Counted from the first letter of the stretch, positions 6,725 through 37,319 are shown. The stretch: DNA of 64,000 bases from Desulfuromonadales bacterium (GCA_029289095.1 JARFUG010000005.1:11914-75913); one strand, 5' to 3'. Numbers and translations: made by a program. The notes: generated by a model from the sequence alone, not told the origin.

Positions 6725-6741
6725 GGAGCAGGAGCCAGAAT

Positions 6742-6806
6742 CCAGGAGCCAGGAGCCAGAATAGGGTCTTTGGCTTTCCTCCTGGCTTCTGGCTTCTGGC
6801 TCCTGG
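6742..6806. repeat. heptamer-repeat inverted pair (CCAGGAG/CCAGAAG family) forming a long hairpin
   Basis: CCAGGAGCCAGGAGCCAGAA (6742-6761) pairs with TTCTGGCTTCTGGCTCCTGG (6787-6806), 19 of 20 bp, 25-nt loop. Lies between the kinase stop (6724) and the ATPase start (6828). No T-run. Confidence 0.9.
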
Positions 6807-6827
6807 ATGCTGCCCTCAGGAACCTCA

Positions 6828-7997
6828 ATGTACGAAGCTTTCTTCGGACTGAACAAAAAACCTTTCGAGCTGGTGCCGAATCCGGATTTCCTCTACCTGA
6901 GCCGCTCCCATTCCCGGGCCGGGACGTATCTTGATTACGCCATGAGGGAAAATACCGGATTCATCCTGTTGACGGGCGAAGTCGGCGCGGGGAAGACGAC
7001 CATCATCCGCAGGCTCCTGGGGACTCTCGGCCCTAACGTGCAGGTCTCCAAGGTCTTCAACACCAGGCTCGAGGCCGATCAGCTCATCGCCACCATCAAC
7101 GACGACTTCGGCATAGAGATCGAGGGGCGCAGCAAGGTTCAGATGCTCAGGGATCTGTACCAGTTTCTCATCGAACAGTACGGCAACCAGAGGCGCTCTG
7201 TGCTGATCATCGACGAGGCGCAGAACCTCTCCGTCGATTCACTCGAAGAGTTGCGGATGCTCTCTAACCTGGAGACCAACGATACCAAGCTGCTGCAGAT
7301 CCTCCTGGTCGGTCAGCCCGAGTTGAAGAAGATCCTCTCGGTCCCTGAACTGCGACAGCTTCGCCAGCGCATCAGCATCCATTGCCACATCAACCCCCTG
7401 AGTCCGGAGGAGACGGCGCAGTATGTCTTCCACCGCCTGGAGGTCGCCGGGAACCGTGACGCCGTCAGCTTCGACGAGGAGGCTCTTTCCCTCGTTCATG
7501 AATACAGCGGGGGGATCCCCCGCCTGATCAATGTACTGTGCGATTTTCTTCTCCTGTCGGCCTTTGCCGAAGAGACGCGCGCCATCACTGGGAATCTGGT
7601 CGACGAGGTTGCCTCCGACAGTCAGTTCGAGGGGCAGTTCCTCCCTCGAAAGACACCTCTAACACGTCGCCCCTCGGGCTCCGGGGAAAAAGGAGATAAC
7701 CAGCCCCGGGTCCGCGCTTCTTCGTCTGAGGGCGCGGCTCCGGATCGCGCGCCGCAAGCGCCGCTACGCAGCGGCGCCGCCGAAAAAGCGGCGGAAATCT
7801 ACCGCAAACTCGACGCTTTCGAGCAATCGATCCAGCAGGTCAGTCGCGGCCTTCTGGAGAACGAAGTGCGTCCGGCCCATCTGCGCATTCCGGAAAGCGA
7901 GTCCGAAGACGTCGTCATCGAAATGCCCGATTTCAAAAGAAGCGCTTCTGCCTCGGGGCGCTGGATCAGCGAGCTGAAAAAAATCTTTACGCGTTGA
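6828..7997 (+). CDS. AAA ATPase, ExeA/GspA-like (PEP-CTERM-locus secretion ATPase type)
   Basis: MYEAFFGLNKKPFELVPNPDFLYLSRSH... N-terminus typical of ExeA-like proteins. Walker A LTGEVGAGKTT and Walker B VLIIDEAQ. Disordered C-terminal tail. Confidence 0.85.
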   Translation: MYEAFFGLNKKPFELVPNPDFLYLSRSHSRAGTYLDYAMRENTGFILLTGEVGAGKTTIIRRLLGTLGPNVQVSKVFNTRLEADQLIATINDDFGIEIEGRSKVQMLRDLYQFLIEQYGNQRRSVLIIDEAQNLSVDSLEELRMLSNLETNDTKLLQILLVGQPELKKILSVPELRQLRQRISIHCHINPLSPEETAQYVFHRLEVAGNRDAVSFDEEALSLVHEYSGGIPRLINVLCDFLLLSAFAEETRAITGNLVDEVASDSQFEGQFLPRKTPLTRRPSGSGEKGDNQPRVRASSSEGAAPDRAPQAPLRSGAAEKAAEIYRKLDAFEQSIQQVSRGLLENEVRPAHLRIPESESEDVVIEMPDFKRSASASGRWISELKKIFTR

Positions 7998-8018
7998 ACT
8001 TCCGGAAGGACCCTGGTC

Positions 8019-9254
8019 ATGAAATGGCGATATTTCGCAGGAGGATTCGTTGCCGTGCTCGTGGTGCTGAGCTGCACCGTCTCACAAGTTTACGGCGAAC
8101 TCAAAATCTATCCGGCGCTGACGCTGAGCGAGACCTACAACGACAACATCTTCAACGCTCCGGACAACAGGGTCAGCGAGTACGTCACCCGTCTCATGCC
8201 CTCGGTCGCCGCGACCTACGATGCCGCGCGCCTGGAGGCGGCGCTTGGCTATACCCTCGATTACAGGTATTACCTGCGGGGGGAGGCCGACAACGAAACG
8301 GTCCACTTCCTCGAGGCGCGGGTCCTCGCGACCCTCTACCGCCAATCGGTCTTCCTGGAAGTGGAGAACGAGCTGTCGCGAGTCTCACTCGACCCGGCGC
8401 GCGACTTCAGGGACGAGAGTCTGTTTCTCAACCAGAGCGACCGCAACGCCTTCTCGATCAGCCCCTTCATCGAGATCGAGCCGACTCCCCGGACACGGCT
8501 GCGCAGTGGGTATCGCTACGTTAACATCAACTACTCCGGGGCGGCAGGGGTCGATCGCGACAACCACATCATCTTCGTCGAAGGGTCGCGCGAACTGAAC
8601 GAGCGTACGACCGCCACCCTCGCAGCCCAGCATCTCGAAGAGGACAGCGCCCGCATCGATTACAGCAAGAGCGAAGTGAGAGCGGGGCTGCGCCGCGCTC
8701 TGTCCGAAACGCTCTACATCGCGGGCTCGATCGGATACGCCTGGATCGATTTCGACAACGACGTGCAGCAAAGAGACCTCTTCTGGGATGCCTCGGTGAG
8801 CAAGGACTTCATCCACGTCTTTGCCTTTGCCGGAATCGGGCGCCGCTATACCGAGGATCCGGAAGGGACGATCTTTCGCGAGGAATATTACCGGTTTTCC
8901 CTGAGCCGCGACTGGGAGCGCACGCGGGTGGCGGCGACAGCGACCTATGCCGAGTATTTCGAAACGCAGACCGACGATCTCGACACCCGCCGCAGGGGGG
9001 GGAGTCTGAGCCTCCATCACGAACTGACCCCTCGCTGGACTCTCCTGTCCGCACTGGGCGCCGACTGGTTCGACGACGCCATCGAGCGCACCGAAACGAG
9101 GCGCCTGATCTACAGCATCGCCTTCGCCTACATGCTCAGAGAAAACATGACGGCCACCTTCACCTATTCCCACGTCGATTCCCACTCCCCCGAACTGCTG
9201 AGAGACCGTTATCGGACAAACCGGGTCATGCTCGAGCTGCACACGGTGTTTTGA
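8019..9254 (+). CDS. outer-membrane beta-barrel protein (PEP-CTERM system-associated type)
   Basis: 411 aa. Signal peptide ...VLVVLSCTVSQVYG. Alternating amphipathic beta-strand pattern rich in Y/R/D/T. C-terminal ...MLELHTVF with terminal Phe. Sits after the ATPase as in described PEP-CTERM loci. Confidence 0.7.
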   Translation: MKWRYFAGGFVAVLVVLSCTVSQVYGELKIYPALTLSETYNDNIFNAPDNRVSEYVTRLMPSVAATYDAARLEAALGYTLDYRYYLRGEADNETVHFLEARVLATLYRQSVFLEVENELSRVSLDPARDFRDESLFLNQSDRNAFSISPFIEIEPTPRTRLRSGYRYVNINYSGAAGVDRDNHIIFVEGSRELNERTTATLAAQHLEEDSARIDYSKSEVRAGLRRALSETLYIAGSIGYAWIDFDNDVQQRDLFWDASVSKDFIHVFAFAGIGRRYTEDPEGTIFREEYYRFSLSRDWERTRVAATATYAEYFETQTDDLDTRRRGGSLSLHHELTPRWTLLSALGADWFDDAIERTETRRLIYSIAFAYMLRENMTATFTYSHVDSHSPELLRDRYRTNRVMLELHTVF

Positions 9255-9256
9255 GG

Positions 9257-9467
9257 GGCAGAATCCAGGAGCCAGGAGCCAGGCGTAGGGGCGGCCCCCT
9301 GTGGCCGCCCTGGACAGGCGTAGGGGCATTGGACCTATTGGACCTCTGGGACCTCTGGGCAGGCACGGGTGCCTGCCCCTACGTTGCCTTGTCCTCCGTC
9401 TTCTGCCCTCCGTCTTCCGTCCTCAGTCCTCAGTCCTTTGTCCGTCTTCCGTCTTCCGGCTTCCTCC
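9257..9467. repeat. composite repeat spacer: CCAGGAG heptamers, CAGGCGTAGGGG direct repeat, 9-mer repeats, GC palindromes, eleven GTCYTCN heptamers
   Basis: CCAGGAG x2.7 at 9265-9283. CAGGCGTAGGGG at 9280-9291 and 9315-9326, with CCCCTACG at 9376-9383. Hairpin GGGCGGCC/GGCCGCCC at 9289-9310. ATTGGACCT/CTGGGACCT 9-mers at 9328-9363. Palindrome GGGCAGGCAC-GG-GTGCCTGCCC at 9357-9378. 7-nt periodic GTCCTCC GTCTTCT GCCCTCC GTCTTCC GTCCTCA GTCCTCA... at 9391-9467. Confidence 0.9.
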
Positions 9468-9602
9468 CTTTGTATTGATTCACGCTCCCCCTGTTCCAAC
9501 ACCTTGGATTGATTTTGGCCGATGCAACGGATTGGGGATTGATTCGATGCGGAAGCGAGATAATCTCGCAAATATGAAAGAAAATTTAGGTTTGGAGGAT
9601 CC

Positions 9603-10451
9603 ATGCGAAACGCTCTGACCGTCGATGTGGAGGATTACTTCCAGGTCGCCGCGTTCCGAAACGATATCCGGGTGGAAGACTGGGAATATTACCCCTTGCG
9701 CGTTGTTGACAACACCCTGCGAGTTCTCGATCTGCTGGACGAGTTCGAGGTCAAGGCGACTTTCTTCGTTCTGGGATGGGTCGCCATGCGGAGGCCGGCC
9801 CTGGTGGGAGAAATCCGGCGTCGGGGCCACGAAATCGCCAGCCACGGTTTCGGCCATCAGCTCATCTACGAGATCGGGCCGGATGAGTTCCGTGAGGATG
9901 TGCGGCGCAGCAAGGCGCTGCTGGAAGATCTGTGCGGAGAAGCGGTGCACGGCTACCGCGCTCCGAGCTATTCGATCACCGGGCGCAACATGTGGGCCAT
10001 CGATATCCTCATCGAAGAAGGGTTTACCTACGATTCGAGCATCTATCCCATTCACCACGACCTCTACGGGATGCCGGACGCTCAGCGCTTCCCCCATGTC
10101 ATCCATCGTGCCGGCGGCTCGATCCGGGAATTTCCAATCTCGACCCTGCAGTTCGGTCTGGGCGAAGCGCTTCAGTTCAGGCTCCCCGTAGGCGGTGGAG
10201 GGTATCTGCGCCTGTTTCCCGTCTCCCTCATGCGCTACGCCTTCAACCACATCAACGAAAAAGAAATGCAACCGGCGGTCCTGTACTTCCACCCCTGGGA
10301 GATCGACCCGGGCCAGCCCCGCATCCGCTCTGGATGGAAATCGCGATTTCGCCACTACGTCAATCTGGAGACGACCTTCAGCAAGCTGACATGCCTGGTC
10401 AAAGACCTGCACTTCGTCCCGATGAAGGAGGTTTTTGCCGATGAAGGGTGA
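9603..10451 (+). CDS. polysaccharide deacetylase (CE4/NodB-like, PEP-CTERM-locus subtype)
   Basis: 282 aa. MRNALTVDVEDYFQVAAF... KATFFVLGWVA...GHEIASHGFGH motifs. GGAGG RBS. Confidence 0.9.
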   Translation: MRNALTVDVEDYFQVAAFRNDIRVEDWEYYPLRVVDNTLRVLDLLDEFEVKATFFVLGWVAMRRPALVGEIRRRGHEIASHGFGHQLIYEIGPDEFREDVRRSKALLEDLCGEAVHGYRAPSYSITGRNMWAIDILIEEGFTYDSSIYPIHHDLYGMPDAQRFPHVIHRAGGSIREFPISTLQFGLGEALQFRLPVGGGGYLRLFPVSLMRYAFNHINEKEMQPAVLYFHPWEIDPGQPRIRSGWKSRFRHYVNLETTFSKLTCLVKDLHFVPMKEVFADEG

Positions 10452-16296: not shown

Positions 16297-16301
16297 GAAC
16301 A

Positions 16302-16382
16302 GGAGTCGGGAGTCGGGAGTCGGGAGTCGGGGCCAAAGCAAGAGCCAAGAACCAGGACCAAAAGCCGGGAGTCGGGAGCTCG
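16302..16382. repeat. heptamer array GGAGTCG x4 plus degenerate units
   Basis: GGAGTCG at 16302, 16309, 16316 and 16323. Degenerate CCAAAGC/AAGAGCC/AAGAACC units follow. GGGAGTCGGGAGCTCG at 16367-16382 ends 2 nt before ATG 16385. Confidence 0.9.
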
Positions 16383-16384
16383 TT

Positions 16385-17533
16385 ATGACCGACAAAGTCA
16401 AAATCGCTTTCGTCATCAACACCATCGCTTCCCCCTCTGGCGGGACGGAAAAGCAGCTCCTTTTCCTTCTCGAGGGGATGAACCGTGAGGTCTTCGAGCC
16501 GCATCTTTTCTGCCTTTATTCAAATGCCTGGCTCGATGAGCATTTCAGCCTCTGCCCCCTGCACGTTCTGGGGATCAACTCGTTCAAGAACCCCCTGATC
16601 CTGCAGCATCTCGCCTCCTTTGCCGCGACTCTGCGCAAAGAAAGCTTCTCCATCGTCCAGACCCATTTCTCGGACGCTAACATGGTGGGGACCCTCGCAG
16701 GGCGGCTCGCCGGCGTGCCGGTCATCATCTCGACCCGACGCGGCGTCCCCTACTACAGCAGCCGCGCGGGGCTCTCGATCCTGCGCCTGCTCAATGCCCG
16801 GGCGAGCTTCTTCATCGCCAACTCCCCCGCGACCCGCCAGTGGGCGTCCGAGGCCGAAGGGATCCCCCTGGAGAAGATCGGGGTGGTCCCCAACGGGATC
16901 GATCCCGCCGTCTGCGTACGGCGCGGGAGGCAGAGAAGCAGCTACCGGCGCGCGCTCAATCTGCCGCTGCGCGCTTCGGTCGTCGGCATCGTCGCCAACC
17001 TTCGCCCGGTCAAGGGGATCGAGATCTTCCTGCGTGCCGCCGCTCTGGTTCTGCTCGAGCTTCCGCAGAGTTACTTTCTGGTGGTCGGCGAAGGGGAGGA
17101 GGAGTCTTCGCTGCGCTCTCTGGCCCGGGAACTCGGGATCGCGCAAAACGTCCTTTTCCTCGGCAAACGAAGCGACGTCCCGGCCCTGCTCGACACCCTG
17201 GACGTGGGAGTTCTCTCCTCTCACTGGGAGAGCTTCTCCAACGCCATACTCGAATACCTCGCCGCCGGGATTCCCGTCGTGTGCACCGACGTGGGAGGGT
17301 GCAGGGATGTCGTCGTCGAGGGGATCAACGGCTACATCGTCCCTCCCGCAGACCCCAGGGCGATGGCCGAGAAGATCGTTCTGCTTCTGCATCGCCATTT
17401 CAGCCAGGGGGAGTGCCAGCGTCTTCGCCGCCGGGTGATGAAGAAATACTCCGTCGAGGCGATGGTGGAGGGGCATCAGAGCCTCTATCGACGGCTTTTG
17501 CAGGGAACCCTCGTGCCGCAGCAGGAAGGGTGA
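16385..17533 (+). CDS. family 4 (GT-B) glycosyltransferase
   Basis: MTDKVKIAFVINTIASPSGGTEKQ N-terminus. VLSSHWESFSNAILEYLAAGIPVVCTDVGG (E-x7-E). The 5' extension to 16175 runs through the repeat array and is rejected. Confidence 0.85.
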   Translation: MTDKVKIAFVINTIASPSGGTEKQLLFLLEGMNREVFEPHLFCLYSNAWLDEHFSLCPLHVLGINSFKNPLILQHLASFAATLRKESFSIVQTHFSDANMVGTLAGRLAGVPVIISTRRGVPYYSSRAGLSILRLLNARASFFIANSPATRQWASEAEGIPLEKIGVVPNGIDPAVCVRRGRQRSSYRRALNLPLRASVVGIVANLRPVKGIEIFLRAAALVLLELPQSYFLVVGEGEEESSLRSLARELGIAQNVLFLGKRSDVPALLDTLDVGVLSSHWESFSNAILEYLAAGIPVVCTDVGGCRDVVVEGINGYIVPPADPRAMAEKIVLLLHRHFSQGECQRLRRRVMKKYSVEAMVEGHQSLYRRLLQGTLVPQQEG

Positions 17534-18624: not shown

Positions 18625-19794
18625 ATGAAGATCGAGATCGTCTCCAGTCAGGAATCGTTCGCCTCCCTGAGAGAGCCCTGGAGCGAACTGCTCGAAAAAA
18701 ATCCGGCGGTAGACTTCTTCCTCTCCCACCCCTGGCTCTACTCGTGGTGGGAAGTCTTCGCACGGGGGCGTGAGCTCTCGATCTTCGTGTGCCGCCACGG
18801 GAGCGACGGAAGGGTCGTCGGAATCCTCCCGGCCTTTATGGAAAACGGTGGAGGTCTCTCGTCGCGACGCATGCGGCTGCTGGGGAGCGAGTTCGTCAGT
18901 TCGGATTTTCTCGGCATTCTCGTCGATCCGCACAGCAAAGAAGAGACCCTGAAGGCGCTTCTCGATGCTCTCCATCACGGCGAGCAGCTCTGGGATCTGC
19001 TCGATTTCGAGGCGCTCGATTCACAGGGAGACCTGCCGGCGCTCCTGCATGAAACGGTTGCGAAAGGGGAGGGGCGCCGGATTCTCATCGAGCCCGGCGA
19101 AACGTGCCCGGCGCTGGTTCTTCCGGGCGACTGGGAGACGTACCTGCGTGCGCTGACGAAAAAGATGCGCTCCAACGTCCGGTATTTCCGCAAGGTGCTG
19201 GAGCGCCGCGGCGCCGTGGAGTACGAAATGATTGAATCGCCGGAGCAGTTCGAAGGGGCGCTGAGTGATGTGATGCGTCTTCGCCGTCGCTGGATCGAGG
19301 CGCGCGGGTACTCGAGCCCGTGCCCTTTTCCCCTCTACGCCGATTTTCACCGCCGCCTGTGGAGGCGCTCGATTCCCGAAGGGGGTGTCCACATCCGCTT
19401 CCTGCGCTACAACGGGCGTCGCATCGCTTTCGCCTATCTTCTGCGCCTGGGAGCGAGCGTTTACTACTACCAGACCGCCTTCGAGCAGGAATTCGCCAGT
19501 CGCAGCGTCGGTTCCGTCCTTCTCGGCCACCTTATCGAAGAGGCGATCGCCTGGGGGTGCACCCGCTTCGAGTTCCTGCGCGGGGATGAACAGTACAAAT
19601 TCAAATGGGGAGAGGTGCGAGAGCGCAGGCTCGCAAGGGTGAAGGTCTACAACGCCACCGGCGCCGGGCGCTGGAGCTACGGCATCGACACGGCTCTGGG
19701 GAGCGCGCGGAGGATGGTGAAGGGACTGGCGCCGGGAAGGACGGAGGACAGAGGACGGAGGACGGAGGACAGCAAACTCCCCCTCCTTGATTAG
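18625..19794 (+). CDS. FemAB-fold GNAT acyltransferase (CelD/BioF2-like, Acetyltransf_6 type)
   Basis: 389 aa. C-terminal signature FEFLRGDEQYKFKWG. Length and layout match four other paralogs in the window. The last ~19 aa (GRTEDRGRRTEDSKLPLLD) are encoded by the heptamer array. Confidence 0.7.
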   Translation: MKIEIVSSQESFASLREPWSELLEKNPAVDFFLSHPWLYSWWEVFARGRELSIFVCRHGSDGRVVGILPAFMENGGGLSSRRMRLLGSEFVSSDFLGILVDPHSKEETLKALLDALHHGEQLWDLLDFEALDSQGDLPALLHETVAKGEGRRILIEPGETCPALVLPGDWETYLRALTKKMRSNVRYFRKVLERRGAVEYEMIESPEQFEGALSDVMRLRRRWIEARGYSSPCPFPLYADFHRRLWRRSIPEGGVHIRFLRYNGRRIAFAYLLRLGASVYYYQTAFEQEFASRSVGSVLLGHLIEEAIAWGCTRFEFLRGDEQYKFKWGEVRERRLARVKVYNATGAGRWSYGIDTALGSARRMVKGLAPGRTEDRGRRTEDSKLPLLD

Positions 19795-19801
19795 GAGGGG
19801 G
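19739..19801. repeat. heptamer array GGACGGA/GGACAGA x5 followed by an 8-bp hairpin spanning the stop codon
   Basis: Units at 19739, 19746, 19753, 19760 and 19767. CCCCCTCC (19779-19786) pairs with GGAGGGGG (19794-19801). The loop TTGATTA contains the TAG stop. Confidence 0.9.
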
Positions 19802-21051: not shown

Positions 21052-22332
21052 ATGATTTACCTCGTAGCGATCTACATGTTCTTCTTCATTTTCCGTCCTT
21101 TCGAGTACTGGCCGATCCTGGGGGAATACCGCATCGAGCGGGTCTACATGCTTTTTTTGCTGAGCGCTCTGTGTTTCTGGCAGGGGAAAAAGTATTTCCC
21201 CCACACGATCAACCGGCTGGTCCTCCTCTTCTTTGCCGTCATGGCCGCCTCGACAGCGTGGGCGCTGCACGTCGACGTCGCCTATGAGGCCACCTTCGAG
21301 TTCTTCAAGCTCATGGTCTTCTTCTTCGTTCTCGTGCTGACGTTGCGGGACGAAAGGGACCTCAAGTTCTTCATCCTGGCGTACCTGGGGATCATGAGCA
21401 TCTATGTGGGGAAATCGGCGTGGGAGTTCTTCGTCCATGACCGCCACGTTTTTCGCATGGGAATCCGCAGGATGGTAGGGGTCGACACCACCTACGGCGA
21501 TCCCAACTCCTTTGCCGCCTCCATCGCCTACAGCCTGCCGTTCCTCTGGGCGATGCTGCGTCTTTACTGGCGGGACAACCCGTGGATACGCACAGCTCTC
21601 ATCGGCTACGGCGTGCTCGCTGCGGTTGCCGTCGTCTTTACCGGGTCGCGCAGCGGCATGCTCATCTGCCTTCTCTTCCTGGTGCTGGCCTGGTGGGAAT
21701 CGGCCAGGAGATTCGCGGGACTCATTGTCCTGGCGGGGGCTCTCGTCCTGGGCTGGCATTACACCCCGGAAGATCTCAAGTACCGGTTTCTCTCCACCTT
21801 CTACAAAGGGGTCGCTCCGGCGGCGGCCGCCGCCGACACCTCTGCAGAGGGGCGGCTGGACGGTCTTTTTCACGGGATACAAATTTTTTTCGAGAATCCT
21901 GTGATGGGCGTCGGTCCCGGCAACTTCCCTTATACGTGGGAGAGAGCCATGAGCTCGCACAATCTGTACGGGCAGCTTCTCGGCGAACTCGGCGCCGTCG
22001 GCTTCATCGCCTTTTTCCTGCTGGTCTGGACGATCTACCGCACGCATCGGCGCAACCGCCTGCGCATCGACGAACTGCAGGGCGGGGATTCCATGGCGGG
22101 CTACGACCCGGGCTTGCGGCTCATGCGCCTGCTCTCGGTCGCCTCGGTGCAGACCCTCATCCTCCTTCTGTTCAACGGCAACTTCGGCCACAACCTTTAC
22201 CGCTACAACTGGCTCTGGATCGGCGTCATCGCCATCGTGACGGCGCATGTGCTGGGAGGCAGAATTCAGAATCCAGGAGCCAGGAGCCGAAAGCTGTATC
22301 CAGGAGCCAGGAGCCAGAATTCCGAAACCTGA
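21052..22332 (+). CDS. O-antigen ligase/polymerase-like membrane protein (Wzy-type, exosortase-locus type)
   Basis: 426 aa, about 10 TM segments. FTGSRSGMLICLLFLVLAWW Wzy_C-like loop. HNLYGQLLGELG. C-terminal ~24 aa (IQNPGARSRKLYPGARSQNSET) encoded by heptamer arrays. Confidence 0.8.
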   Translation: MIYLVAIYMFFFIFRPFEYWPILGEYRIERVYMLFLLSALCFWQGKKYFPHTINRLVLLFFAVMAASTAWALHVDVAYEATFEFFKLMVFFFVLVLTLRDERDLKFFILAYLGIMSIYVGKSAWEFFVHDRHVFRMGIRRMVGVDTTYGDPNSFAASIAYSLPFLWAMLRLYWRDNPWIRTALIGYGVLAAVAVVFTGSRSGMLICLLFLVLAWWESARRFAGLIVLAGALVLGWHYTPEDLKYRFLSTFYKGVAPAAAAADTSAEGRLDGLFHGIQIFFENPVMGVGPGNFPYTWERAMSSHNLYGQLLGELGAVGFIAFFLLVWTIYRTHRRNRLRIDELQGGDSMAGYDPGLRLMRLLSVASVQTLILLLFNGNFGHNLYRYNWLWIGVIAIVTAHVLGGRIQNPGARSRKLYPGARSQNSET

Positions 22333-22351
22333 AACCTGAAACCTGAAACCT
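22273..22351. repeat. heptamer arrays CCAGGAG (x2, x2.5) and GAAACCT x4
   Basis: CCAGGAG at 22273, 22280, 22300 and 22307. CCAGAAT at 22314. GAAACCT at 22324, 22331, 22338 and 22345, giving TGA in all three frames (22330, 22337, 22344). Confidence 0.95.
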
Positions 22352-22365: not shown

Positions 22366-23667
22366 ATGCAGATACTTGCGATCCTCTACATCTACCCCCC
22401 GCTCCTTTTCCCGGCCACCATGCGCAATCTCAAGGTGGTCAAGGGGCTTTCGGAGTGCGGCGCAGGCGTCGAGGTGGTGAGTGTCGATCCTGAGAGTTTC
22501 GTCTTTTCCGGGCATCACATCGACCCTGCACTGGAGGAACTCGCCCCGCCTTCAATCGTCAATCACCGGATCCGATCGTGGGAGGTTCATCCCCTGGTGA
22601 AGGGGCTCAAGGCCTTTGCCTTCACCCGCTCCCTTCTCTACCGGCTCTTCGAGCCGCGCAAGAAGGAGTGGACCTATTCAGCGCTACGATATCTTAAAAA
22701 GCTCGGCTCAGATCGGTTCGACCTGATCCTGAGTTGCTCGCAGCCCCACTGCAACCATCTGCTCGGCTACAGGCTCAAGCAGATGACGGGAAAACCATGG
22801 GTCGCCTATTTCAGCGACCCATGGACCGACAACGTCTATGCCGATTACAGCGATGAAAAGATCCGGCGCTACCATCTCGAGCTCGAAAAACGAGTCCTTC
22901 ACGGCGCCGATCGGATCTGCTTCACCTGCAAAGAAGCGGCCGATCTGGTGCTTCGGAAGCACCCGCCGGCGTTTGCCCGCAAATGCGTCATCCTCCCCCA
23001 CAGCTTCGTGCCGCAATGGTACGGGCTGCGTCCGGCCTGCGCAGCGGCGCCGGAGAAGATCCGCATCGTTCAGACCGGGCATTTCTATGGCCCCCGCACC
23101 CCCATGCCGCTCTTCGAGGCGTTGGCCGAAGCGGCGAAGAGGCGCCCCCTCGAAGAGCGGCTGGAGTTTCATTTCTACGGGAGCATGGATGACAGATACC
23201 ACAAATACATGCGGGAACACGGACTCGATCGTTTCGTGCACCTCAAGGGGACCGTCCCCTACCTGCAGAGCCTGTCCGTGCTCAAAGACGCCGATTTTCT
23301 CCTCCTCATCGACGCTCCCCTGACGGATCAGGCCGAGAGCGCCTTTCTCCCCTCCAAGCTCATCGATTATTTCGGGAGCGGGAAACCGGTCCTCGGCATC
23401 ACTCCGGCCGCCGGGACGAGCGCGCGGGTGCTGCGCGAGACGGGGAATCTGGTGTGCGACGTCGCCGACAAGACAGCCATCATGCAGATGCTCGAAAAAC
23501 TCGCCGAGGGCTCTCTCGATATCGATCCCGACACAGAGGCTCTCGGACGCTACGAAAACACCGAAGTCTCTCGGCGCTTCTACGCCGACCTGCAACATCT
23601 GGTACTTACCGATCCTCTCCCCCTCCTGGATCAGGAGGGGAGTGAAACCAGTGGCTGCCGCAGATGA
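22366..23667 (+). CDS. GT-B fold glycosyltransferase (GT4-like, divergent)
   Basis: 433 aa. Two-Rossmann layout. YFSDPWTDN, IVQTGHFYG and FLPSKLIDYFGSGKPVLG motifs. Similar architecture to 50307-51683. Confidence 0.6.
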   Translation: MQILAILYIYPPLLFPATMRNLKVVKGLSECGAGVEVVSVDPESFVFSGHHIDPALEELAPPSIVNHRIRSWEVHPLVKGLKAFAFTRSLLYRLFEPRKKEWTYSALRYLKKLGSDRFDLILSCSQPHCNHLLGYRLKQMTGKPWVAYFSDPWTDNVYADYSDEKIRRYHLELEKRVLHGADRICFTCKEAADLVLRKHPPAFARKCVILPHSFVPQWYGLRPACAAAPEKIRIVQTGHFYGPRTPMPLFEALAEAAKRRPLEERLEFHFYGSMDDRYHKYMREHGLDRFVHLKGTVPYLQSLSVLKDADFLLLIDAPLTDQAESAFLPSKLIDYFGSGKPVLGITPAAGTSARVLRETGNLVCDVADKTAIMQMLEKLAEGSLDIDPDTEALGRYENTEVSRRFYADLQHLVLTDPLPLLDQEGSETSGCRR

Positions 23668-23731
23668 ACGCAGATAAGCGCAGATGGACGAAGACCAGGT
23701 TTCCATCTGCGGAAATCTGTGCAATCTGCGG
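23659..23731. repeat. 10-nt periodic CGCAGAT array, three direct plus three inverted units
   Basis: CGCAGATGAA, CGCAGATAAG, CGCAGATGGA (23659-23688), then CCATCTGCGG, AAATCTGTGC, AATCTGCGG (23703-23731). The inner arms GCGCAGATGG/CCATCTGCG form a hairpin. The GT stop (23665-23667) lies in the first unit. Confidence 0.9.
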
Positions 23732-26992: not shown

Positions 26993-27697
26993 ATGAAACT
27001 TTCCGAACTGAGAAGAAAGGTGCTGACGATAGAGAAGGTTGTTTTCTACTCTCTCGATTTGCGGCAGTGGCAGACGCCGTCTTTGCCCCGAATGCGGCTG
27101 CCGGTCAGATTTGCCTTCGGGAGAGAAGAAGACATCGAATGCATGGCGGCCGACGACAGACTCAATCTCGGAGGGCGCAGCGATTTCTATCTGCAGAAGC
27201 TGCAGATGGGACACAAGCTGCTGCTCGGAACACGGAACGAGGAGATCCTCTTTTATCTCTGGGTCGTTTCGGGGGAGAAGATCCTGATGAACAAAGTGTT
27301 GGCGCTCGAGCCGCAGCAGATCGCCATCGAGAGGGCCTTCGTCCGCAAGGACGTGCGCGGACACGGCCTCTTCGTCCACGGTCTCAATTACCTTCTCCCA
27401 CTGGAAAAGGAGGAGGGAGCGGCGAACTGCCTGACGGAGGTGAGCTGCAAGAACAGGCCGATGACCCACACCGTGCTGAAATACGGTTTCGAGCGCCTCG
27501 ACTCCTCCTACTACTGGATCTCCCATCCGCTGCGTCATCACGCCATCGTCCTCGGTCCGCTGCGAAAGCGCAGCCGCCCCAACACCATCATCTCGCCGAT
27601 GGCAGGCGCGCAGGGGAGGTATCTATGGAAGGCAGAAGCCAGAAGCCAGAAGCCAGGAGCCAGGAGCCAGGAGCCAGGAGTAAGGAATAAGGAATAA
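26993..27697 (+). CDS. small GNAT-like N-acetyltransferase (tentative)
   Basis: Start at ATG 26993. ERAFVRKDVRGHGLFVHGLNYL resembles GNAT motif A (R-x-x-G-x-G/A). The C-terminal ~20 aa are encoded by heptamer arrays, and the stop is the third TAA of TAAGGAA x3. Confidence 0.45.
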   Translation: MKLSELRRKVLTIEKVVFYSLDLRQWQTPSLPRMRLPVRFAFGREEDIECMAADDRLNLGGRSDFYLQKLQMGHKLLLGTRNEEILFYLWVVSGEKILMNKVLALEPQQIAIERAFVRKDVRGHGLFVHGLNYLLPLEKEEGAANCLTEVSCKNRPMTHTVLKYGFERLDSSYYWISHPLRHHAIVLGPLRKRSRPNTIISPMAGAQGRYLWKAEARSQKPGARSQEPGVRNKE

Positions 27698-27876
27698 GGA
27701 CCAGGAGCCAGGAGTCAGGAGCCAGGAGCCAGAGCCGGCTCGTTCTTTTCCGTTTAACTCGCCCTCCTCCCTCCTCCCTTCTTGGCCCTTCGTCCTCTGT
27801 CCTCTGTCCTCCGTCCTCCGTCCTCCGTCCTCCGTCCTCCGTCCTCTCCAACTCCCAACTCCCAGCTCCCAACTCC
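27632..27876. repeat. largest heptamer-repeat block: ~15 sense units then ~12 antisense-type units
   Basis: 27632-27735: GCAGAAG, CCAGAAG x2, CCAGGAG x4, TAAGGAA x3, CCAGGAG x2, TCAGGAG, CCAGGAG, CCAGAGC. 27793-27876: TCCTCTG x2, TCCTCCG x5, TCCTCTC, CAACTCC x2, CAGCTCC, CAACTCC. Confidence 0.95.
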
Positions 27877-27989
27877 CGCCATATCACCACAGCCTCCGAC
27901 ACAAATGGTCAACGCCTTCGCTCGAGGGTGTGAACTTTCGTTCTCCTGGCTTTTAAGATAAGTGACTGAAATTGCGTAGAAAACAAAGT

Positions 27990-28005: not shown

Positions 28006-28075
28006 CCTTTGAGCTCCCGGCCGACGCATAAGCCGTCGGAACCGGGCTTTTCAAATGAACAAGGAGATCACGAGA

Positions 28076-29983
28076 ATGAAGGTCAGATTTGCTGCCTTCC
28101 CTCTGCTTGCGGCTGCCCTCATGCTGATCCTGGTCGGGTGCGGCACAGACGGAGGTAAAGCGTCGTGGGACATTTCGGGAGAGGACTTCTTTGCTCCTGC
28201 CGAGAATAACGATTTCATCAGCGAGTTCCCTCAAATCGGGAACGAACCCTCCAACCCTCGGACCGAAACGCCATCTCCCGGCGAGCCTTCTCCCACCGTC
28301 GGGGCTCACGGCGCCATCGGCGCCGCCTCTGCCGGGGTCGCCTTCTGGGACGCAGAGATCCCGCACCGCAGCCGAACGGTGATGCTGAGCGCCCCTGCGG
28401 TTCTCGATCAGCCCGATACCGAATACATCCTGGCGCAGGACATCGTCGTCGCCGGAAGCGCATTCATTATCACGGCCGCGAACGTGACGCTGAACCTCAA
28501 CGGCCGTACCGTCACCTACGCGCAGAGCGCATCTTCCGGCCCAGTCTACGGCATCAACCTCATCGAACGGGGACTGTCCGATGTGGCGATCGTGAACGGC
28601 AAGATCCGCCAGGGCAATGGCGCCTCCGAGAGCGATGCGACGCAAAGAGGGTGGCACCCGGTCAACATCCTGCGCGATGTCCCCGGTCTGAAGATCGCAG
28701 GGCTCAAGGTCGAATACCGCACCCCTGAGACCTTCGCCATCAATGTCCCCTGGGGGAGGAACGGCGAAATCGCCCATAACGATCTACACGATACGGGCTC
28801 TTTCATCATCGACCGCCATCAACTTGTCGCTGTCGTCAAGGCAAACCGGGCGCCGGGAATGACGATCCGCCACAACCGCATCCTCCGCGCGCGCCAGGCC
28901 GGGATCGACGCCGGCCCCGGGGCTGTGGTGCACGATAACGAGATCGTGATCGACAGCCACAGCACCAATTCGTACGGCATCGTCCTGTACAACGTCGACG
29001 GCTTCACCGTTCACAACAACACCATCAAGGGGGCAGGGGAGCATCCCATCGGGATCGGGATGGTTTCGGGAACAAGAAATGGCGAGGTCTACAGCAATCG
29101 CGTTGAGGTGCAGAACACTCGGGGGAGCGCCGAGTACGGAGCTACGGGCTCGGCCGGGATGCGAATGACGTGGGGGACCGACAAGGTCGAGGTCCGCAAC
29201 AACCACATCACGGTGAAGGCCCAGGCGAATCTGGTCGGTCCGGGGCTCGACAGTTGGGGACGCGGGCTCTGGCTCGGGCTCCCCGATGCTGGTGCCGCCG
29301 TTCTCTTTCGCGACAACACCATCATCGCCGTGAACAAAGACGGGCGCGCCAAGGCCGCAGGGATCGCGGTGGTGTGCGGCAACAGGGCGCCCGGCCTCGT
29401 TTTCCGCAACAACCTGGTGACGAGCAACTGGGCCAACGTGCTGCTGACAGACGATTACGGAGACGCACAAGGCTTTCCCCGCTTCATCGGGAACACCTTC
29501 CGAAAGCAGGACGATCATTCCACCTATCGCACGGTTCGCAGCCAGTATGCGGGCCGCATATCAACCGGCAACTTCTTCAGCAACGTCTATGAGAACGGCG
29601 CCGCCGCCGACAGCATGGAGATGGAATTCCACGGCTCCGGACTCAAAGAAATCGGTTTCGGCTGGAGGGTGCGCCTGACGGTGCGCGATGCCGCGAACCA
29701 CCCCGTGAGCGGAGCGACGGTGCGGATCGCAGACAACAGCGGAGACGTGGTTTTCAGCGGGAGCACCGATGCCGATGGTCATGCGTTCACCGAACTGGTC
29801 GAGTTCCAGGCGACCAACCGCAGCAGCTACGTCGTCGCAGGCCAGCTCACCAAAGATGTCTTCGGCCTCTACGGCAACCGCATCCGCAAGAATCCCTACA
29901 CAGTCACCGTCGAAAAGAACGGCGTCAGGGTCTCGGAAGTGATCGAGATCAAGGCAGACAGAGAGGTGGAGATAGGACTTTAG
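28076..29983 (+). CDS. beta-helix (PbH1/CASH-like) lipoprotein, paralog 2
   Basis: ATG 28076 has an AAGGAGA RBS at 28061. Lipoprotein signal MKVRFAAFPLLAAALMLILVGC. Beta-helix rungs and a C-terminal beta-sandwich. Long identical blocks with paralog 3 (GEHPIGIGMVS, GSAEYGATGSAGMRMTWGTD, ANLVGPGLDSWGRGLW, DGRAKAAGIAVVCGN). Confidence 0.75.
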   Translation: MKVRFAAFPLLAAALMLILVGCGTDGGKASWDISGEDFFAPAENNDFISEFPQIGNEPSNPRTETPSPGEPSPTVGAHGAIGAASAGVAFWDAEIPHRSRTVMLSAPAVLDQPDTEYILAQDIVVAGSAFIITAANVTLNLNGRTVTYAQSASSGPVYGINLIERGLSDVAIVNGKIRQGNGASESDATQRGWHPVNILRDVPGLKIAGLKVEYRTPETFAINVPWGRNGEIAHNDLHDTGSFIIDRHQLVAVVKANRAPGMTIRHNRILRARQAGIDAGPGAVVHDNEIVIDSHSTNSYGIVLYNVDGFTVHNNTIKGAGEHPIGIGMVSGTRNGEVYSNRVEVQNTRGSAEYGATGSAGMRMTWGTDKVEVRNNHITVKAQANLVGPGLDSWGRGLWLGLPDAGAAVLFRDNTIIAVNKDGRAKAAGIAVVCGNRAPGLVFRNNLVTSNWANVLLTDDYGDAQGFPRFIGNTFRKQDDHSTYRTVRSQYAGRISTGNFFSNVYENGAAADSMEMEFHGSGLKEIGFGWRVRLTVRDAANHPVSGATVRIADNSGDVVFSGSTDADGHAFTELVEFQATNRSSYVVAGQLTKDVFGLYGNRIRKNPYTVTVEKNGVRVSEVIEIKADREVEIGL

Positions 29984-29987
29984 AATC

Positions 29988-30095
29988 GTGAGGAGTGAGG
30001 AGTCAGGAGTCAGGAGTCAATAGATTGAGTGCAATGCAATCGGCGGGACCCTTCGGGTTCCGCCTTTTTTTTATCCCAGCTCCCAACTCCCAACC
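29988..30095. repeat. heptamer arrays flanking a terminator: GTGAGGA/GTCAGGA x5 and CAGCTCC/CAACTCC x2.7
   Basis: Units at 29988-30022 (sense GGAGTGA/GGAGTCA family). The complement family is at 30077-30095. The two blocks bracket the hairpin at 30042-30072. Confidence 0.9.
30042..30072 (+). terminator. Rho-independent terminator after paralog 2
   Basis: GGCGGGACC (30042-30050) pairs with GGTTCCGCC (30056-30064), including one G-U pair. Loop CTTCG, followed by T8 (30065-30072). Confidence 0.8.
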
Positions 30096-32350: not shown

Positions 32351-32396
32351 ATTCAATGAGAACAAACCCCAACCACCCCTTTCCAAAGGAGGGAAC

Positions 32397-33023: not shown

Positions 33024-33030
33024 AAAGACG

Positions 33031-33060
33031 AGCGCAGCAGGGGATTTCCCCTGCTGCGCT
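33031..33060 (+). terminator. 13-bp perfect hairpin after the PEP-CTERM gene (terminator or RNA stabiliser)
   Basis: AGCGCAGCAGGGG (33031-33043), loop ATTT, CCCCTGCTGCGCT (33048-33060). No clear T-run follows. Confidence 0.45.
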
Positions 33061-33216
33061 TCACGTCCGACACCGCGCGCCGCCCACGCGGTAATATGAA
33101 CCTTGGATCACCGGCTTTGAACCAAAGGCCTTCCCGCCACGGGTGTACCTTCCAAATAGCTGTAAACCTGTTGTTTTTTCCAAAACAAAATCGTCGAATA
33201 TTTTTTCCGGAAGCGG

Positions 33217-33244
33217 TTTACATCGGGACCTCTCTTACTATAAT
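33217..33244 (+). promoter_or_regulatory. candidate sigma-70-type promoter
   Basis: TTTACA (33217-33222), 16-nt spacer, TATAAT (33239-33244), in an AT-rich spacer. Motif match only. Confidence 0.3.
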
Positions 33245-33310
33245 TAGCCTGAAATAATTACATCTATTTTAATTAATTGATTTGTCAGAAACCTTTACAC
33301 AGGCACTCTT

Positions 33311-33326
33311 ATCGCCTTTCGACTCA
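33311..33326 (+). promoter_or_regulatory. weaker sigma-54 (-24/-12) promoter candidate for the TPR lipoprotein gene
   Basis: AGGCAC-TCTTA-TCGCC. The GG-N10-GC spacing is exact and -24 GGCAC is intact, but the -12 reads TCGC instead of TTGC. Lies 81 nt upstream of ATG 33407. Confidence 0.4.
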
Positions 33327-33406
33327 ACATCCCGTTACGAGTGAACGATGGCGGTCCTCCTTCGAAAGCGGGAATCCGGCCGACCATGCAAGGGAGAAGA
33401 ACCGCA

Positions 33407-36055: not shown

Positions 36056-36060
36056 GAGGG

Positions 36061-36166
36061 CAGAATCCAGAATCCAGAAACCAGGAGCCAGAAAAGAACC
36101 CTGCACCCTGAATTTTGAACCTATGGGCAAGTCTTTCTCCTGGCTCCTGGATTCTGGCTCCTGGCT
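36061..36166. repeat. heptamer inverted pair (CAGAATC/CAGGAGC family and complement)
   Basis: CAGAATC x2, CAGAAAC, CAGGAGC, CAGAAAA at 36061-36095. The complement block TTCTCCTGGCTCCTGGATTCTGGCTCCTGGCT is at 36135-36166. CCAGGAGCCAG (36081-36091) pairs with CTGGCTCCTGG (36140-36150). Confidence 0.9.
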
Positions 36167-36186
36167 ACTGTTTTAGGAGATATTCA

Positions 36187-37215
36187 ATGCACATTCTGCG
36201 TGTCTACAACCGCGACCCGCTCTGGGACGCTTATGTCGATTCTCATCCCGAGGCGACCAATTATCACCGGCTTGGCTGGAAACGCGTGGTCGAAAGGAGT
36301 TTCGGGCACCAGGGGATCTACCTCGCGGCCCGCGACAATGAAGGGAAGATGCAGGGAATACTCCCCCTCGTCTATCTCAGGAGTCCTCTCTTCGGGAACG
36401 TCATCGTATCGGTTCCCTTTTTCAATTACGGCGGGCTTCTATGCAGTTGCACAGAGGCGGAGCACGCTCTGCTGTCCGAGGCCGAAAAGATCAAAGAGAA
36501 CCTGCGCGTCGGTCACCTCGAGCTTCGGCACATGGGTCGAAGCTCGCCGGGGCTCGTCACAAAGAACCACAAAGTGACGATGATCCTCGATCTGCTTCCG
36601 GACGAGGAGAGCCAGTGGCAGGGGTTCAGCGCAAAGGTTCGCAATCAGGTGAGAAAGGCGCAGAAGGCGGGGCTCGAGACAAAGCTCGGCGGCCTCAGTC
36701 TTCTCGACGGCTTCTACGACGTCTTCTGCAGGAACATGCGCGATCTCGGCACACCAGTGTACGCAAAGGCATTTTTCCGCAACATCCTGCGGGTCTTTCC
36801 CGAGCACACCCGGATTCTGTCGGTTTATCTCAACGGGAAGGTCATCGCTTCGGCTCTCCTCACCTGGTACCGCGACAGTCTCGAAGTCCCATGGGCTTCG
36901 TCGAACCGCGATTACCGCGATCTGTGTCCGAACAATCTGCTGTACTGGGAAGCGATCCGCTTCGCCGTCGGCATGGGGGTGAAGAGCTTTGATTTCGGCC
37001 GCTCCACGCCGGACCACGGGACGTTCCGGTTCAAGAAACAGTGGGGCGCCAGGCCGGTGCAGCTCTACTGGCAATACCTTCTCGGAAGTGAAAAAGAAGT
37101 CCCCGATCTGAGCCCGGCCAACCCCAAGTTCCGCCTGGCGATCAAGGTGTGGCAGAACCTCCCGGTAGGGGTGACAAAGCTTCTGGGACCGTCGATCGTG
37201 CGGAGTATTCCTTGA
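36187..37215 (+). CDS. FemAB-related protein, PEP-CTERM system-associated type
   Basis: ATG 36187 with a TAGGAGA RBS. MHILRVYNRDPLWDAYVDSHPEATNYHRLGWKRVVERSFGH..., FFNYGGLL, and FDFGRSTPDHGTFRFKKQWGA FemAB-fold C-terminus. Confidence 0.85.
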   Translation: MHILRVYNRDPLWDAYVDSHPEATNYHRLGWKRVVERSFGHQGIYLAARDNEGKMQGILPLVYLRSPLFGNVIVSVPFFNYGGLLCSCTEAEHALLSEAEKIKENLRVGHLELRHMGRSSPGLVTKNHKVTMILDLLPDEESQWQGFSAKVRNQVRKAQKAGLETKLGGLSLLDGFYDVFCRNMRDLGTPVYAKAFFRNILRVFPEHTRILSVYLNGKVIASALLTWYRDSLEVPWASSNRDYRDLCPNNLLYWEAIRFAVGMGVKSFDFGRSTPDHGTFRFKKQWGARPVQLYWQYLLGSEKEVPDLSPANPKFRLAIKVWQNLPVGVTKLLGPSIVRSIP

Positions 37216-37221
37216 GAGGCA

Positions 37222-37319
37222 GGAGTTGGGAGTTGGGAGTGAGGAGGCAGAAGGCGGAAGACAGAGGACAGAAGACAGAAGACAAGCCAGGAGCTATGAG
37301 CCAGGAACTATGAGCAATG
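37222..37319. repeat. heptamer array (GGAGTTG, GGAGTGA, GAAGACA, GAGGACA families) merging into a 14-mer AGCCAGGARCTATG duplication at the start codon
   Basis: Fourteen consecutive 7-nt units from 37222. AGCCAGGAGCTATG (37285-37298) and AGCCAGGAACTATG (37299-37312). The second ATG (37310) is the aminotransferase-like gene start. Confidence 0.9.

Follow-up and report, generated by a model that had tools for sequence, protein, structure and literature searches.

Period-7 tandem arrays between the genes of an exopolysaccharide cluster in a Desulfuromonadales bacterium are a lineage-specific instance of a widespread class of bacterial repeats

We analyzed a stretch of 64,000 nucleotides from a Desulfuromonadales bacterium (GCA_029289095.1, JARFUG010000005.1:11914-75913), which we will call the window. 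Many of the genes in one long plus-strand gene cluster of the window are separated by tandem arrays of 7-nucleotide units. These arrays belong to a widespread class, of which they are a lineage-specific instance. They are non-coding, specific to period 7, stable at 99.9% identity, and unrelated to the function of the exosortase that is encoded in the same cluster. We lean towards the view that they are heptanucleotide microsatellites, seeded by slippage on stop codons and Shine-Dalgarno (SD) sequences and in some cases inverted, which are tolerated or are mildly useful as punctuation between cistrons.

A reading of the window that was made from its bases alone (the sequence-only reading) had named nine gene junctions with such arrays, and Tandem Repeats Finder (TRF) reported period-7 arrays at all nine. 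We number these junctions J1 to J9. The arrays are at 6724-6762 and 6782-6806 (J1); 9265-9283 and 9391-9464 (J2); 16302-16331 (J3); 19738-19770 (J4); 22273-22317 and 22324-22351 (J5); 27633-27736, 27765-27846, and 27848-27877 (J6); 29991-30019 and 30074-30094 (J7); 36061-36093 and 36137-36170 (J8); and 37221-37322 (J9). A scan of the window for periods of 2-15 gave 16 arrays of period 7, two of period 14, and none of any other period, versus 0.0 to 0.1 arrays in local shuffles. Similarly, four tandem copies of RGGAGNN were matched six times in the window and not at all in 100 shuffles. The arrays had also been described as repeating at exactly 7 nt and as filling their junctions. The period is indeed 7, but the arrays match themselves at 71-100%, so not all of them are exact, and J2, J4, and J7 include parts that are not repetitive.

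The unit families are as the sequence-only reading described them. The units on the sense strand have an AGGAG or GGA core, which makes them SD-like. Arrays reach about 15 copies, mix variant units, and contain no G-tracts. The variant units come in blocks (for instance, three copies of CCAGAAG and then four of CCAGGAG, or two copies of TCCTCTG and then five of TCCTCCG), and three of the unit families each recur in 3-5 junctions of the window.

The arrays are clustered: 9 of the 23 junctions between 5.8 and 37.3 kb have a heptamer array, versus 0 of 23 elsewhere in the window (Fisher p = 0.0015). The claim that the distal half has none holds within the window, as TRF found no period-7 array beyond 37322 apart from one match, of 2.1 copies, at 59546. 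No array lies in the 9.5 kb of sequence on the left side of the window either. About 4.2 kb beyond the window's right end, a continuing Logan unitig stops in a period-7 array, (AATTCAA)n, at or in the end of an open reading frame (ORF) (L251, 16183-16206), so arrays do exist outside the window. The unit of this array is A+T-rich and is not SD-like. Overall, in about 78 kb of the genome, there are nine junctions within 30 kb and one further array 31 kb downstream.

Within the window, the arrays have a regular position and polarity. In six junctions, the sense array starts 0-8 nt past the upstream stop codon (for example, TGAGGAGCAGGAGCC and TAGGAGGGCAGAATCC), and in three junctions (J4, J5, and J6), it overlaps the 3' end of the upstream ORF. 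Because these three arrays start before the stop codon, the ORFs as called run 18-25 codons into the array. All arrays are confined to spacers and to the final 18-25 codons of ORFs, which is a bias towards non-coding DNA. J1, J2, J6, J7, and J8 have a purine-rich block and then a pyrimidine-rich block, while J3, J4, J5, and J9 have only sense purine-rich blocks (J5 also has (GAAACCT)4). None of the nine junctions has the pyrimidine-rich block first. Every gene downstream of an array keeps its own SD beside its start. The array-free junctions of the operon are 3-60 nt long and have short purine-rich spacers that run from stop to SD to start, such as TGA GAGAGCGTC ATG.

The arrays at J4, J5, and J6 encode C-terminal tails (from 19738-19794, 22273-22332, and 27633-27697), such as GRTEDRGRRTEDSKLPLLD and PGARSRKLYPGARSQNSET. 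These tails have probably either been gained recently or come from errors in ORF calling. The GNAT paralogs of the J4 ORF, which are the only homologs we compared, align just to residue 330 of 389.

Nearly identical DNA is present in a second assembly of the same species, the metagenome-assembled genome (MAG) GCA_030604755.1, and in Logan unitigs from run SRR14872665. Contigs of the MAG cover J1-J5 and J7-J9. Between the window and the MAG, there are 19 substitutions in about 44 kb and no indels, and the unit number is unchanged at all eight junctions (although the consensus of a MAG could mask minor variants). We can reject an assembly artefact, as identical arrays are present in the separate MAG and in the unitigs. 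The ends of Logan unitigs or of MAG contigs fall in arrays, at 6727-6756 (J1), 16302-16331 (J3), 29881-29986, and 36137-36170 (J8). For the unitigs, the exact end points are in J1, J3, and J8, and the break in the MAG is at J7. Such breaks are expected, as the arrays' k-mers recur in several junctions.

Arrays with the same unit are found in other phyla. An exact scan for (CCAGGAG)3, with one genome per species, matched at least 112 stretches from about 10 phyla. The counts that follow are for the matches listed, which were selected for this one unit. The phyla include Acidobacteriota, Planctomycetota, Verrucomicrobiota, Chloroflexota, Cyanobacteria, Nitrospirota, Desulfobacterota, Actinomycetota, and Gemmatimonadota, among others, and several MAGs gave four to six such contigs each. 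Cultured strains on the list include Chryseolinea serpens DSM 24574, Acidovorax facilis DSM 649, and Microbulbifer sediminum TT37; the species of the window is not on it. These matches comprise 0.83 Mb and contain 189 arrays of period 7, versus 17 and 13 for periods 8 and 6, respectively. Many other units are among these arrays, and arrays of heptamers that are not SD-like are frequent in the same genomes. At the five junctions that we checked with Pfam, the neighbors are ordinary housekeeping genes, such as ABC-transporter, peptidase M16-mutL, or hisD-hisG pairs.

Intergenic enrichment and a consistent orientation relative to transcription had been put forward as checks on the arrays. In the other phyla, enrichment is clear: only 9 of 160 arrays are inside called genes, versus a coding fraction of 77%. 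A general strand bias is not present. At co-directional junctions, arrays of a single polarity are purine-rich on the sense strand in 23 cases and pyrimidine-rich in 24. Only the stop-adjacent subset is biased. Sense purine-rich arrays lie a median of 28 nt past the upstream stop (12 nt or less in 14 of 39 cases), versus 160 nt for pyrimidine-rich arrays (12 nt or less in 2 of 40; p = 0.0007 for the comparison). Where both polarities are present, the purine-rich array comes first in 26 junctions and second in 3. The same order dominates in an independent set of viral contigs (RGGAGNN arrays of four units in IMG/VR, at least 120 matches): among the matches listed, 35 pairs are purine-first and 7 are pyrimidine-first, while in the window the counts are 12 and 0. 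CCAGGAG itself is not a uniquely favored unit, as the two variable bases of the viral RGGAGNN arrays listed are diverse. Scans of viral contigs with strict patterns for purine-first pairs and for pyrimidine-first pairs gave 0 matches each way. We found no description of the stop anchoring or of the purine-first order in the literature that we searched.

The layout of J1 and J8 (described below) is also found in Blastocatellia, Nitrospirae, Bryobacterales, Pirellulaceae, and others, and in one Gemmatimonadaceae junction, a terminator comes after an array, as in J7. In other phyla, the pyrimidine-rich arm often stops right at an ATG that has no SD. The loops between the arms do not share a conserved core, either across genomes or among the junctions of the window, so we rejected a conserved loop or mobile core across phyla. 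One Blastocatellia MAG, BP_48, is an exception: its three hairpins, in each of which a loop joins a purine-rich array to a following pyrimidine-rich one (L133, 2069-2178; L144, 5494-5606; L167, 6375-6473), share a loop motif (AGAAAAGC ... GCATGC palindrome), which implies that in that genome the paired arrays are a dispersed repeat family.

We delimited the window's junctions, all on the plus strand, from TRF, the sequence, and predicted RNA folding (along with gene calls for J4, J5, J8, and J9, the period scan for J6, and a terminator scan for J7). Folding energies were compared with those of shuffled sequences as z scores (200 shuffles for J9). J1 (6724..6806) separates the genes for a ParA-like protein and an AAA_22 protein. 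Its sense block of AGGAGC/AGGAGCC/AGAATCC (6724-6762) overlaps the TGA stop at 6722-6724, and after a short loop there is a complementary block of CTGGCTT/CTGGCTC (6782-6806). The arms are near-perfect inverted copies, with the variant units in matching order, and the predicted hairpin (6729-6805) has a folding energy of -56.6 kcal/mol (z = -6.09). The downstream SD is AGGAA at 6816-6820. The true start is 6828 and not 6807, as judged by alignment to homologs (which have a conserved N-terminus, MYEAFFGL).

J8 (36057..36174), between the genes for a TPR protein and a FemAB-like protein, is built similarly. Its sense block of CAGAATC/CAGAAAC/CAGGAGC (36061-36093) begins 6 nt past a TAG stop, and after a loop there is a complementary block of CTCCTGG/ATTCTGG (36137-36170); the next start is at 36187. 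The predicted fold (-49.7 kcal/mol, z = -3.02) has one foot 2 nt past the stop and the other 2 nt ahead of the SD (AGGAG). A tenth junction (23658..23731; from TRF at period 10, sequence, and folding), between the genes for a GT4-like protein and a flippase, was not on the list of the sequence-only reading. It has three direct 10-nt units, CGCAGATGAA/CGCAGATAAG/CGCAGATGGA, which include the TAA stop, and then three inverted units. This is the sense-then-antisense layout of J1 and J8 at a period of 10, and the predicted segmented hairpin has an energy of -40.6 kcal/mol (z = -6.04). The feet of all three hairpins are adjacent to the upstream stop and to the next ribosome-binding site (within a few nucleotides for J1 and J8).

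J7 (29988..30094) lies between the genes for a beta-helix protein and a 617-amino-acid protein. A sense block of GTGAGGA/GTCAGGA (29988-30019) begins 5 nt past a TAG stop, and a complementary block of CCCAGCT/CCCAACT is at 30074-30094. The center, at 30042-30072, is a canonical intrinsic terminator, GGCGGGACCC-TTC-GGGTTCCGCC followed by T8, with a GC-rich stem of 10 bp and a loop of 3 nt (stem-loop at 30042-30064). The junction folds with z = -2.31, as a terminator wrapped by partly complementary arrays. A transcription unit probably ends here, downstream of the beta-helix gene. The terminator scan found no other convincing intrinsic terminators in 6-46 kb or at the other junctions.

J3 and J9 are of another kind. 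In J3 (16301..16384), between the genes for a 2-hydroxyacid dehydrogenase and a GT4 protein, (GGAGTCG)4 starts 5 nt past a TGA stop. Decayed units of the CCAAGAG/CCAGGAC type come next, and the final units, GGGAGTC GGGAGCT, are the SD for the ATG at 16385. In J9 (37221..37322), between the genes for the FemAB-like protein and a DegT aminotransferase, three sense sub-arrays (GGAGTTG/GGAGTGA, GAAGACA/GAGGACA, and AGCCAGG-AGCTATG) form a purine-rich tract. They occupy the whole spacer from the TGA stop at 37213-37215 and extend beyond the ATG at 37310 to include the first four DegT codons. Both junctions are less structured than shuffled sequences (z = +1.27 for J3 and +2.02 for J9; for J9, 200 of 200 shuffles fold at least as well).

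In J2 (9258..9467), between the genes for a beta-barrel protein and a deacetylase (DUF3473), a sense block of CAGAATC/CCAGGAG (9258-9283) and a pyrimidine-rich block of GTCCTCC/GTCTTCC (9391-9467) flank a GC-rich, palindromic center (9284-9390). The center has 9-nt tandem repeats (ATTGGACCT / GGACCTCTG) and nested inverted repeats, including the stem GGGCAGGCA-CGGG-TGCCTGCCC, and no T-run. Another 135 nt without arrays precede the start at 9603. J6 (27633..27877), between an ORF of unknown function and the gene for the beta-helix protein, has sense blocks of CCAGAAG (three copies), CCAGGAG (four), TAAGGAA (three), and CCAGGAG (four) at 27633-27736. The stop codon of the ORF is the TAA of a TAAGGAA unit. 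After a loop, there are pyrimidine-rich units, TCCTCTG/TCCTCCG at 27765-27846 and CAACTCC at 27848-27877, and then another 178 nt without arrays before the start at 28055. Neither J2 (z = -0.77 for the whole junction) nor J6 (z = -1.08) folds better than shuffles.

J4 (19738..19801), between the genes for a GNAT protein and an ELFV dehydrogenase, has (AGGACGG/AGGACAG)4.7 within the last 18 codons of the ORF at 18625-19794, and a separate small hairpin, CTCCCCCTCC..AGGAGGGGG, lies across the TAG stop. In J5 (22254..22351), between the genes for Wzy and a GT4-like protein, CAGAATT/CCAGGAG units are followed by (GAAACCT)4. The TGA stop (22330-22332) is within this second array, and the next start is at 22366. 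J5 folds with z = -1.07.

The sequence-only reading had proposed that sense blocks followed by complementary blocks fold into long hairpins. This stood for J1 and J8, while J2 and J6 fold like shuffles and J3 and J9 are less structured than that. So we rejected hairpins as a general model: they hold only for J1, J8, and 23658-23731, and partly for J7.

Our preferred explanation is slipped-strand replication that would have started from a short, purine-rich stop-codon/SD sequence between tightly packed cistrons. Such a seed would explain why the sense units have AGGAG or GGA cores; why the arrays start at, within about 8 nt of, or across the upstream stop; and why the last unit is sometimes a real SD. 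Also, blocks of variant units are the product expected of stepwise slippage. At half of the junctions, the array would later have been copied in inverted orientation, and unit families would then have spread to neighboring junctions. The transcripts would be of two types: an unstructured tract with multiple SDs (J3 and J9), or a long hairpin, which either wraps a terminator (J7) or, at J1, J8, and the 10-nt junction, has one foot directly past the stop and the other directly ahead of the next ribosome-binding site. A hairpin would loop out the extra DNA and keep the stop and restart sites close to each other, which may be why the insert is tolerated. It may also punctuate the cistrons, as a barrier to 3'-exonucleases, as an RNase III site, or as a coupling hairpin that is opened by the terminating ribosome.

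Several observations weigh against this explanation. Slippage alone does not account for the preference for purine-first order, as the reverse order would fold equally well. Nor does it account for the recurrence of the variants CCAGGAG/CCAGAAG/CCAGAAT in distant phyla, or for the clustering of the arrays in one 30-kb stretch. Given 19 substitutions without any change in unit number, the arrays are not highly unstable, which is mildly unexpected if slippage is active. The equal numbers of purine-rich and pyrimidine-rich arrays of single polarity imply that SD seeding cannot be the origin of all heptamer arrays. Finally, the genes in other phyla are from a home-made codon-usage caller that was trained on the window, and the Pfam check covered five junctions only.

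We also considered that the purine-rich arrays might be selected translational devices. An SD-like run after the stop could hold the terminating 30S or 70S ribosome by pairing with its anti-SD and hand it to the next start (re-initiation or standby); or, in the hairpin form, the terminating ribosome could melt the foot of the stem and free the downstream initiation region, which would couple the two genes strictly. The idea of standby or re-initiation pads was among those of the sequence-only reading, and it fits the adjacency of sense purine-rich arrays to stops, both in the window and across phyla; however, stop/SD seeding predicts this adjacency equally well. J3 and J9 span the distance from stop to start and have little structure, the feet of the J8 hairpin are next to the stop and the SD, and the pyrimidine-rich arms of other phyla that end at an ATG without an SD would also suit such a device. 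On the other hand, each downstream gene here has its own SD, and the relatives' versions of these junctions work with spacers of 10-25 nt. Elsewhere, arrays that are only pyrimidine-rich equal those that are only purine-rich at co-directional junctions, and arrays of non-SD heptamers are frequent in array-bearing genomes (one is just outside the window). We consider such devices unlikely. The polarity, the recurrence of variants, and the clustering keep some functional reading in play, whether as tracks for termination and re-initiation or as coupling hairpins, at a similarly low or slightly lower probability.

A bolder proposal is that a stop, a purine-rich SD-like array, a complementary pyrimidine-rich array, and a start together make up a distinct, selected class of intercistronic element, instead of tolerated growth of microsatellites. 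This four-part layout occurs here and in Acidobacteriota, Planctomycetota, Nitrospirota, Verrucomicrobiota, Gemmatimonadota, and others. We consider the proposal rather unlikely. If it were true, the elements would couple or insulate the translation and mRNA decay of neighboring cistrons. The purine-first order would be imposed at the level of RNA, maybe because it avoids an exposed C-rich arm and hence the loading of Rho, or there would be a dedicated generating mechanism. There would then be a functional explanation for the excess of 7-nt repeats in bacterial intergenic DNA.

It is doubtful that the paired arrays are a small palindromic element that spreads by mobility or recombination, like repetitive extragenic palindromes (REP), bacterial interspersed mosaic elements (BIME), or miniature inverted-repeat transposable elements (MITE), or that they are seams of homology for the exchange of exopolysaccharide gene blocks. 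In favor of this are the three copies with a conserved loop in the Blastocatellia MAG. Also, three unit families recur across junctions, assemblies break at arrays, and, relative to the Trichloromonadaceae locus, arrays are at the borders of an insertion of about 26 kb and of a swap of the AAA_22 and beta-barrel genes. However, no core is conserved in the loops, whether between genomes or between the window's junctions, so the copies do not share an element sequence. We saw no target-site duplications, distinct terminal inverted repeats, or transposase in the window, and the flanking genes have uniform, native G+C content at third codon positions (GC3). And the borders of blocks are also simply where non-overlapping genes leave free spacer.

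The two weakest alternatives are a sponge for CsrA and phase variation. In the first, a CsrA/RsmA-like protein, or another protein that binds single-stranded RNA, such as S1 or Csp, would bind repeatedly along the arrays, which would titrate or recruit it and so control exopolysaccharide production. GGA does occur every 7 nt in the unstructured J3 and J9, and the same three proteins were proposed as binders of TAACTGA heptamers (PMC4679880). But the resemblance to CsrB/RsmZ RNAs that the sequence-only reading pointed to was not supported. No part of the window matches any Rfam family at the gathering thresholds, including the CsrB/RsmZ classes, so we reject a known RNA family, and GGA motifs are buried in stems (J1 and J8) or lie in unstructured runs (J3 and J9) rather than in hairpin loops. 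Furthermore, the arrays are absent from the exosortase loci of relatives and flank unrelated housekeeping genes elsewhere, and we consider binding sites of this kind very unlikely. Least plausible of all is that the arrays are contingency loci, with changes in unit number (7 is not divisible by 3) that switch or tune surface-polysaccharide genes: there are tandem repeats within a surface-polysaccharide locus, and three arrays overlap the 3' ends of ORFs, where a change in copy number would alter the C-terminal tail, but the constancy of the eight junctions between two assemblies despite 19 substitutions disfavors phase variation (with the caveat about MAG consensus given above), and the arrays are after stops within an operon, not in 5' coding regions or between promoter elements.

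The sequence-only reading had not recognized the arrays as a described element of exosortase loci. The nearest named homologs of the window's exosortase are exosortase A proteins of Trichloromonadaceae, Desulfuromonadales, and Desulfuromonas (64-67% identity). We compared the loci of three relatives: a MAG with an 81%-identical exosortase (L241), and a Trichloromonadaceae MAG (L243) and Desulfuromonas sp. AOP6 (L245), at 64-67%. None of these three exosortase loci has a period-7 array, so we rejected conservation of the arrays as part of the exosortase A operon. Elsewhere, the CCAGGAG unit is found between his, mutL, or ABC-transporter genes. Judging from these comparisons, the arrays do not belong to the exosortase/PEP-CTERM system.

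The Trichloromonadaceae locus has its deacetylase, FemAB, DegT, and exosortase genes side by side, separated by spacers of 14-25 nt, and across the relatives the corresponding spacers are 10-25 nt. Between the deacetylase and FemAB genes, our locus has about 26 kb of extra DNA (9603-36187, versus 6836-8775 of L243), with genes for glycosyltransferases, Wzy, a flippase, and beta-helix, PEP-CTERM, and TPR proteins. The AAA_22 and beta-barrel genes are in swapped order. The array junctions coincide with the borders of these rearranged blocks.

The gene cluster is for the synthesis and export of an exopolysaccharide, in a window with a G+C content of 59.4%. Its Pfam families include a sugar transferase, Poly_export, a GNVR chain-length protein, a ParA-like kinase, an AAA_22 ATPase, a beta-barrel protein, deacetylases, many glycosyltransferases, Wzy, a flippase, a PEP-CTERM protein, a large TPR protein, and a FemAB-like protein. 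Further on are a DegT aminotransferase, the exosortase (EpsH family), EpsI, and a radical-SAM/SPASM enzyme. The array-bearing genes have a uniform, native-looking GC3 of 0.73-0.81, so we rejected the idea that the array-bearing stretch is an island of foreign DNA; if anything, the distal genes without arrays look more foreign. Those at 40059-57663 have a lower GC3 (0.67-0.75), which hints that the distal part may be the more recently acquired DNA. We also noticed a perfect 13-bp palindrome (33031-33060) directly after the PEP-CTERM gene and a near-consensus promoter-like site (33217-33244; TTTACA-16-TATAAT, 11 of 12 matching) upstream of the TPR gene; the spacer there has no arrays. The site is the only strong promoter-like one within 26-46 kb, and a promoter scan found none at the junctions in 6-26 kb.

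How do these arrays compare to known repeats? The sequence-only reading had suggested the cyanobacterial short tandemly repeated repetitive (STRR) sequences as the closest analogy. STRR units include CCCCAGT, TTGGTCA, and CAACAGT, for which, to our knowledge, neither SD-like cores nor stop-codon anchoring nor a purine-then-pyrimidine order has been reported. Like the window's arrays, the STRR are tandem 7-nt units of several families per genome, in non-coding DNA, and their function is unexplained. But their units differ from CCAGGAG, GGAGTCG, GGACGGA, and so on, and they are from another phylum. The exosortase's nearest named homologs are from Desulfuromonadales, and the cyanobacterial signature HIP1 (GCGATCGC) is not enriched in the window (4 matches versus 5 expected), so these are not STRR proper. 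In Calothrix PCC 7601, the STRR are three tandem heptanucleotides, as cited in PMC4692102. The analogy is apt in that heptameric simple sequence repeats (SSRs) are a recognized, over-represented intergenic class (PMC4692102, PMC4679880, PMC2700814, PMC6749651). They are over-represented in bacterial non-coding DNA, and polymerase slippage has been proposed as the cause (PMC4692102). With at least three tandem copies and a non-coding bias, the window's arrays belong to this generic class. A literature search for the CCAGGAG array itself gave no bacterial paper, only unrelated human ones.

GGGAATC repeats in Xanthomonas and GGGGAYT repeats in Nostoc are biased towards non-coding DNA and are near the ends of ORFs, including downstream on the coding strand (PMC4692102). 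They occasionally form inverted stem-loop pairs, are under-represented between divergent genes, have neighbors from all functional classes, and have no demonstrated regulatory role (PMC4692102). The window's arrays are similar in their non-coding bias, position at ORF ends, inverted pairs, and mixed neighbors. However, those repeats have G-tracts and G-quadruplexes and prefer exactly four units, while ours have no G-tracts and form longer, mixed arrays. TAACTGA direct repeats are also intergenic and are found in Beggiatoaceae, cyanobacteria, and Bacteroidetes; a post-transcriptional role has been suggested for them, in which S1, Csp, or CsrA would bind (PMC4679880). They share with our arrays a patchy distribution over phyla. 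But they have one fixed unit in 2-6 copies, a few nucleotides upstream of starts, with a single inverted pair reported (PMC4679880), whereas the window's units are diverse, SD-like, and anchored at stops, and often have an inverted partner. Closer to the host's lineage (Desulfuromonadales/Geobacterales), Geobacter metallireducens has multicopy elements of four or five tandem heptanucleotides: GGACCGG has 49 copies, and 15 of 16 MTYCTGA sites are in that class (PMC2700814). These are dispersed tandem heptanucleotides as well, and only proposals have been made for their regulatory roles (PMC2700814). They differ from ours in their consensus units and fixed copy number, and they also occur within genes. 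Chloroflexus has (GATAGRA)n satellites (PMC6749651).

The hairpins of J1, J8, and 23658-23731 would also resemble other stable hairpins between co-transcribed genes. The REP/BIME of Escherichia coli and the RNase III sites of the early mRNA of phage T7 are intercistronic stem-loops that can block 3' exonucleases or be cut by RNase III, and so set the stability of segments of an operon. Unlike the window's arrays, these have defined sequences and are not tandem arrays, and we saw neither sequence similarity to them nor a RAYT transposase here.

These results have some practical consequences. Annotation should not treat the arrays as a hallmark of exosortase loci, which they are not. The arrays also fragment short-read assemblies, and ORF callers probably add 18-25 spurious codons where arrays overlap the ends of genes. 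More broadly, the excess of 7-nt repeats in bacterial non-coding DNA has long been known, with no accepted cause or function (PMC4692102, PMC4679880). The window provides a compact natural example, with ten junctions in one operon and two structural types. If the anchoring at stops and the purine-first order hold genome-wide, they would constrain any model of the origin of heptamer repeats.

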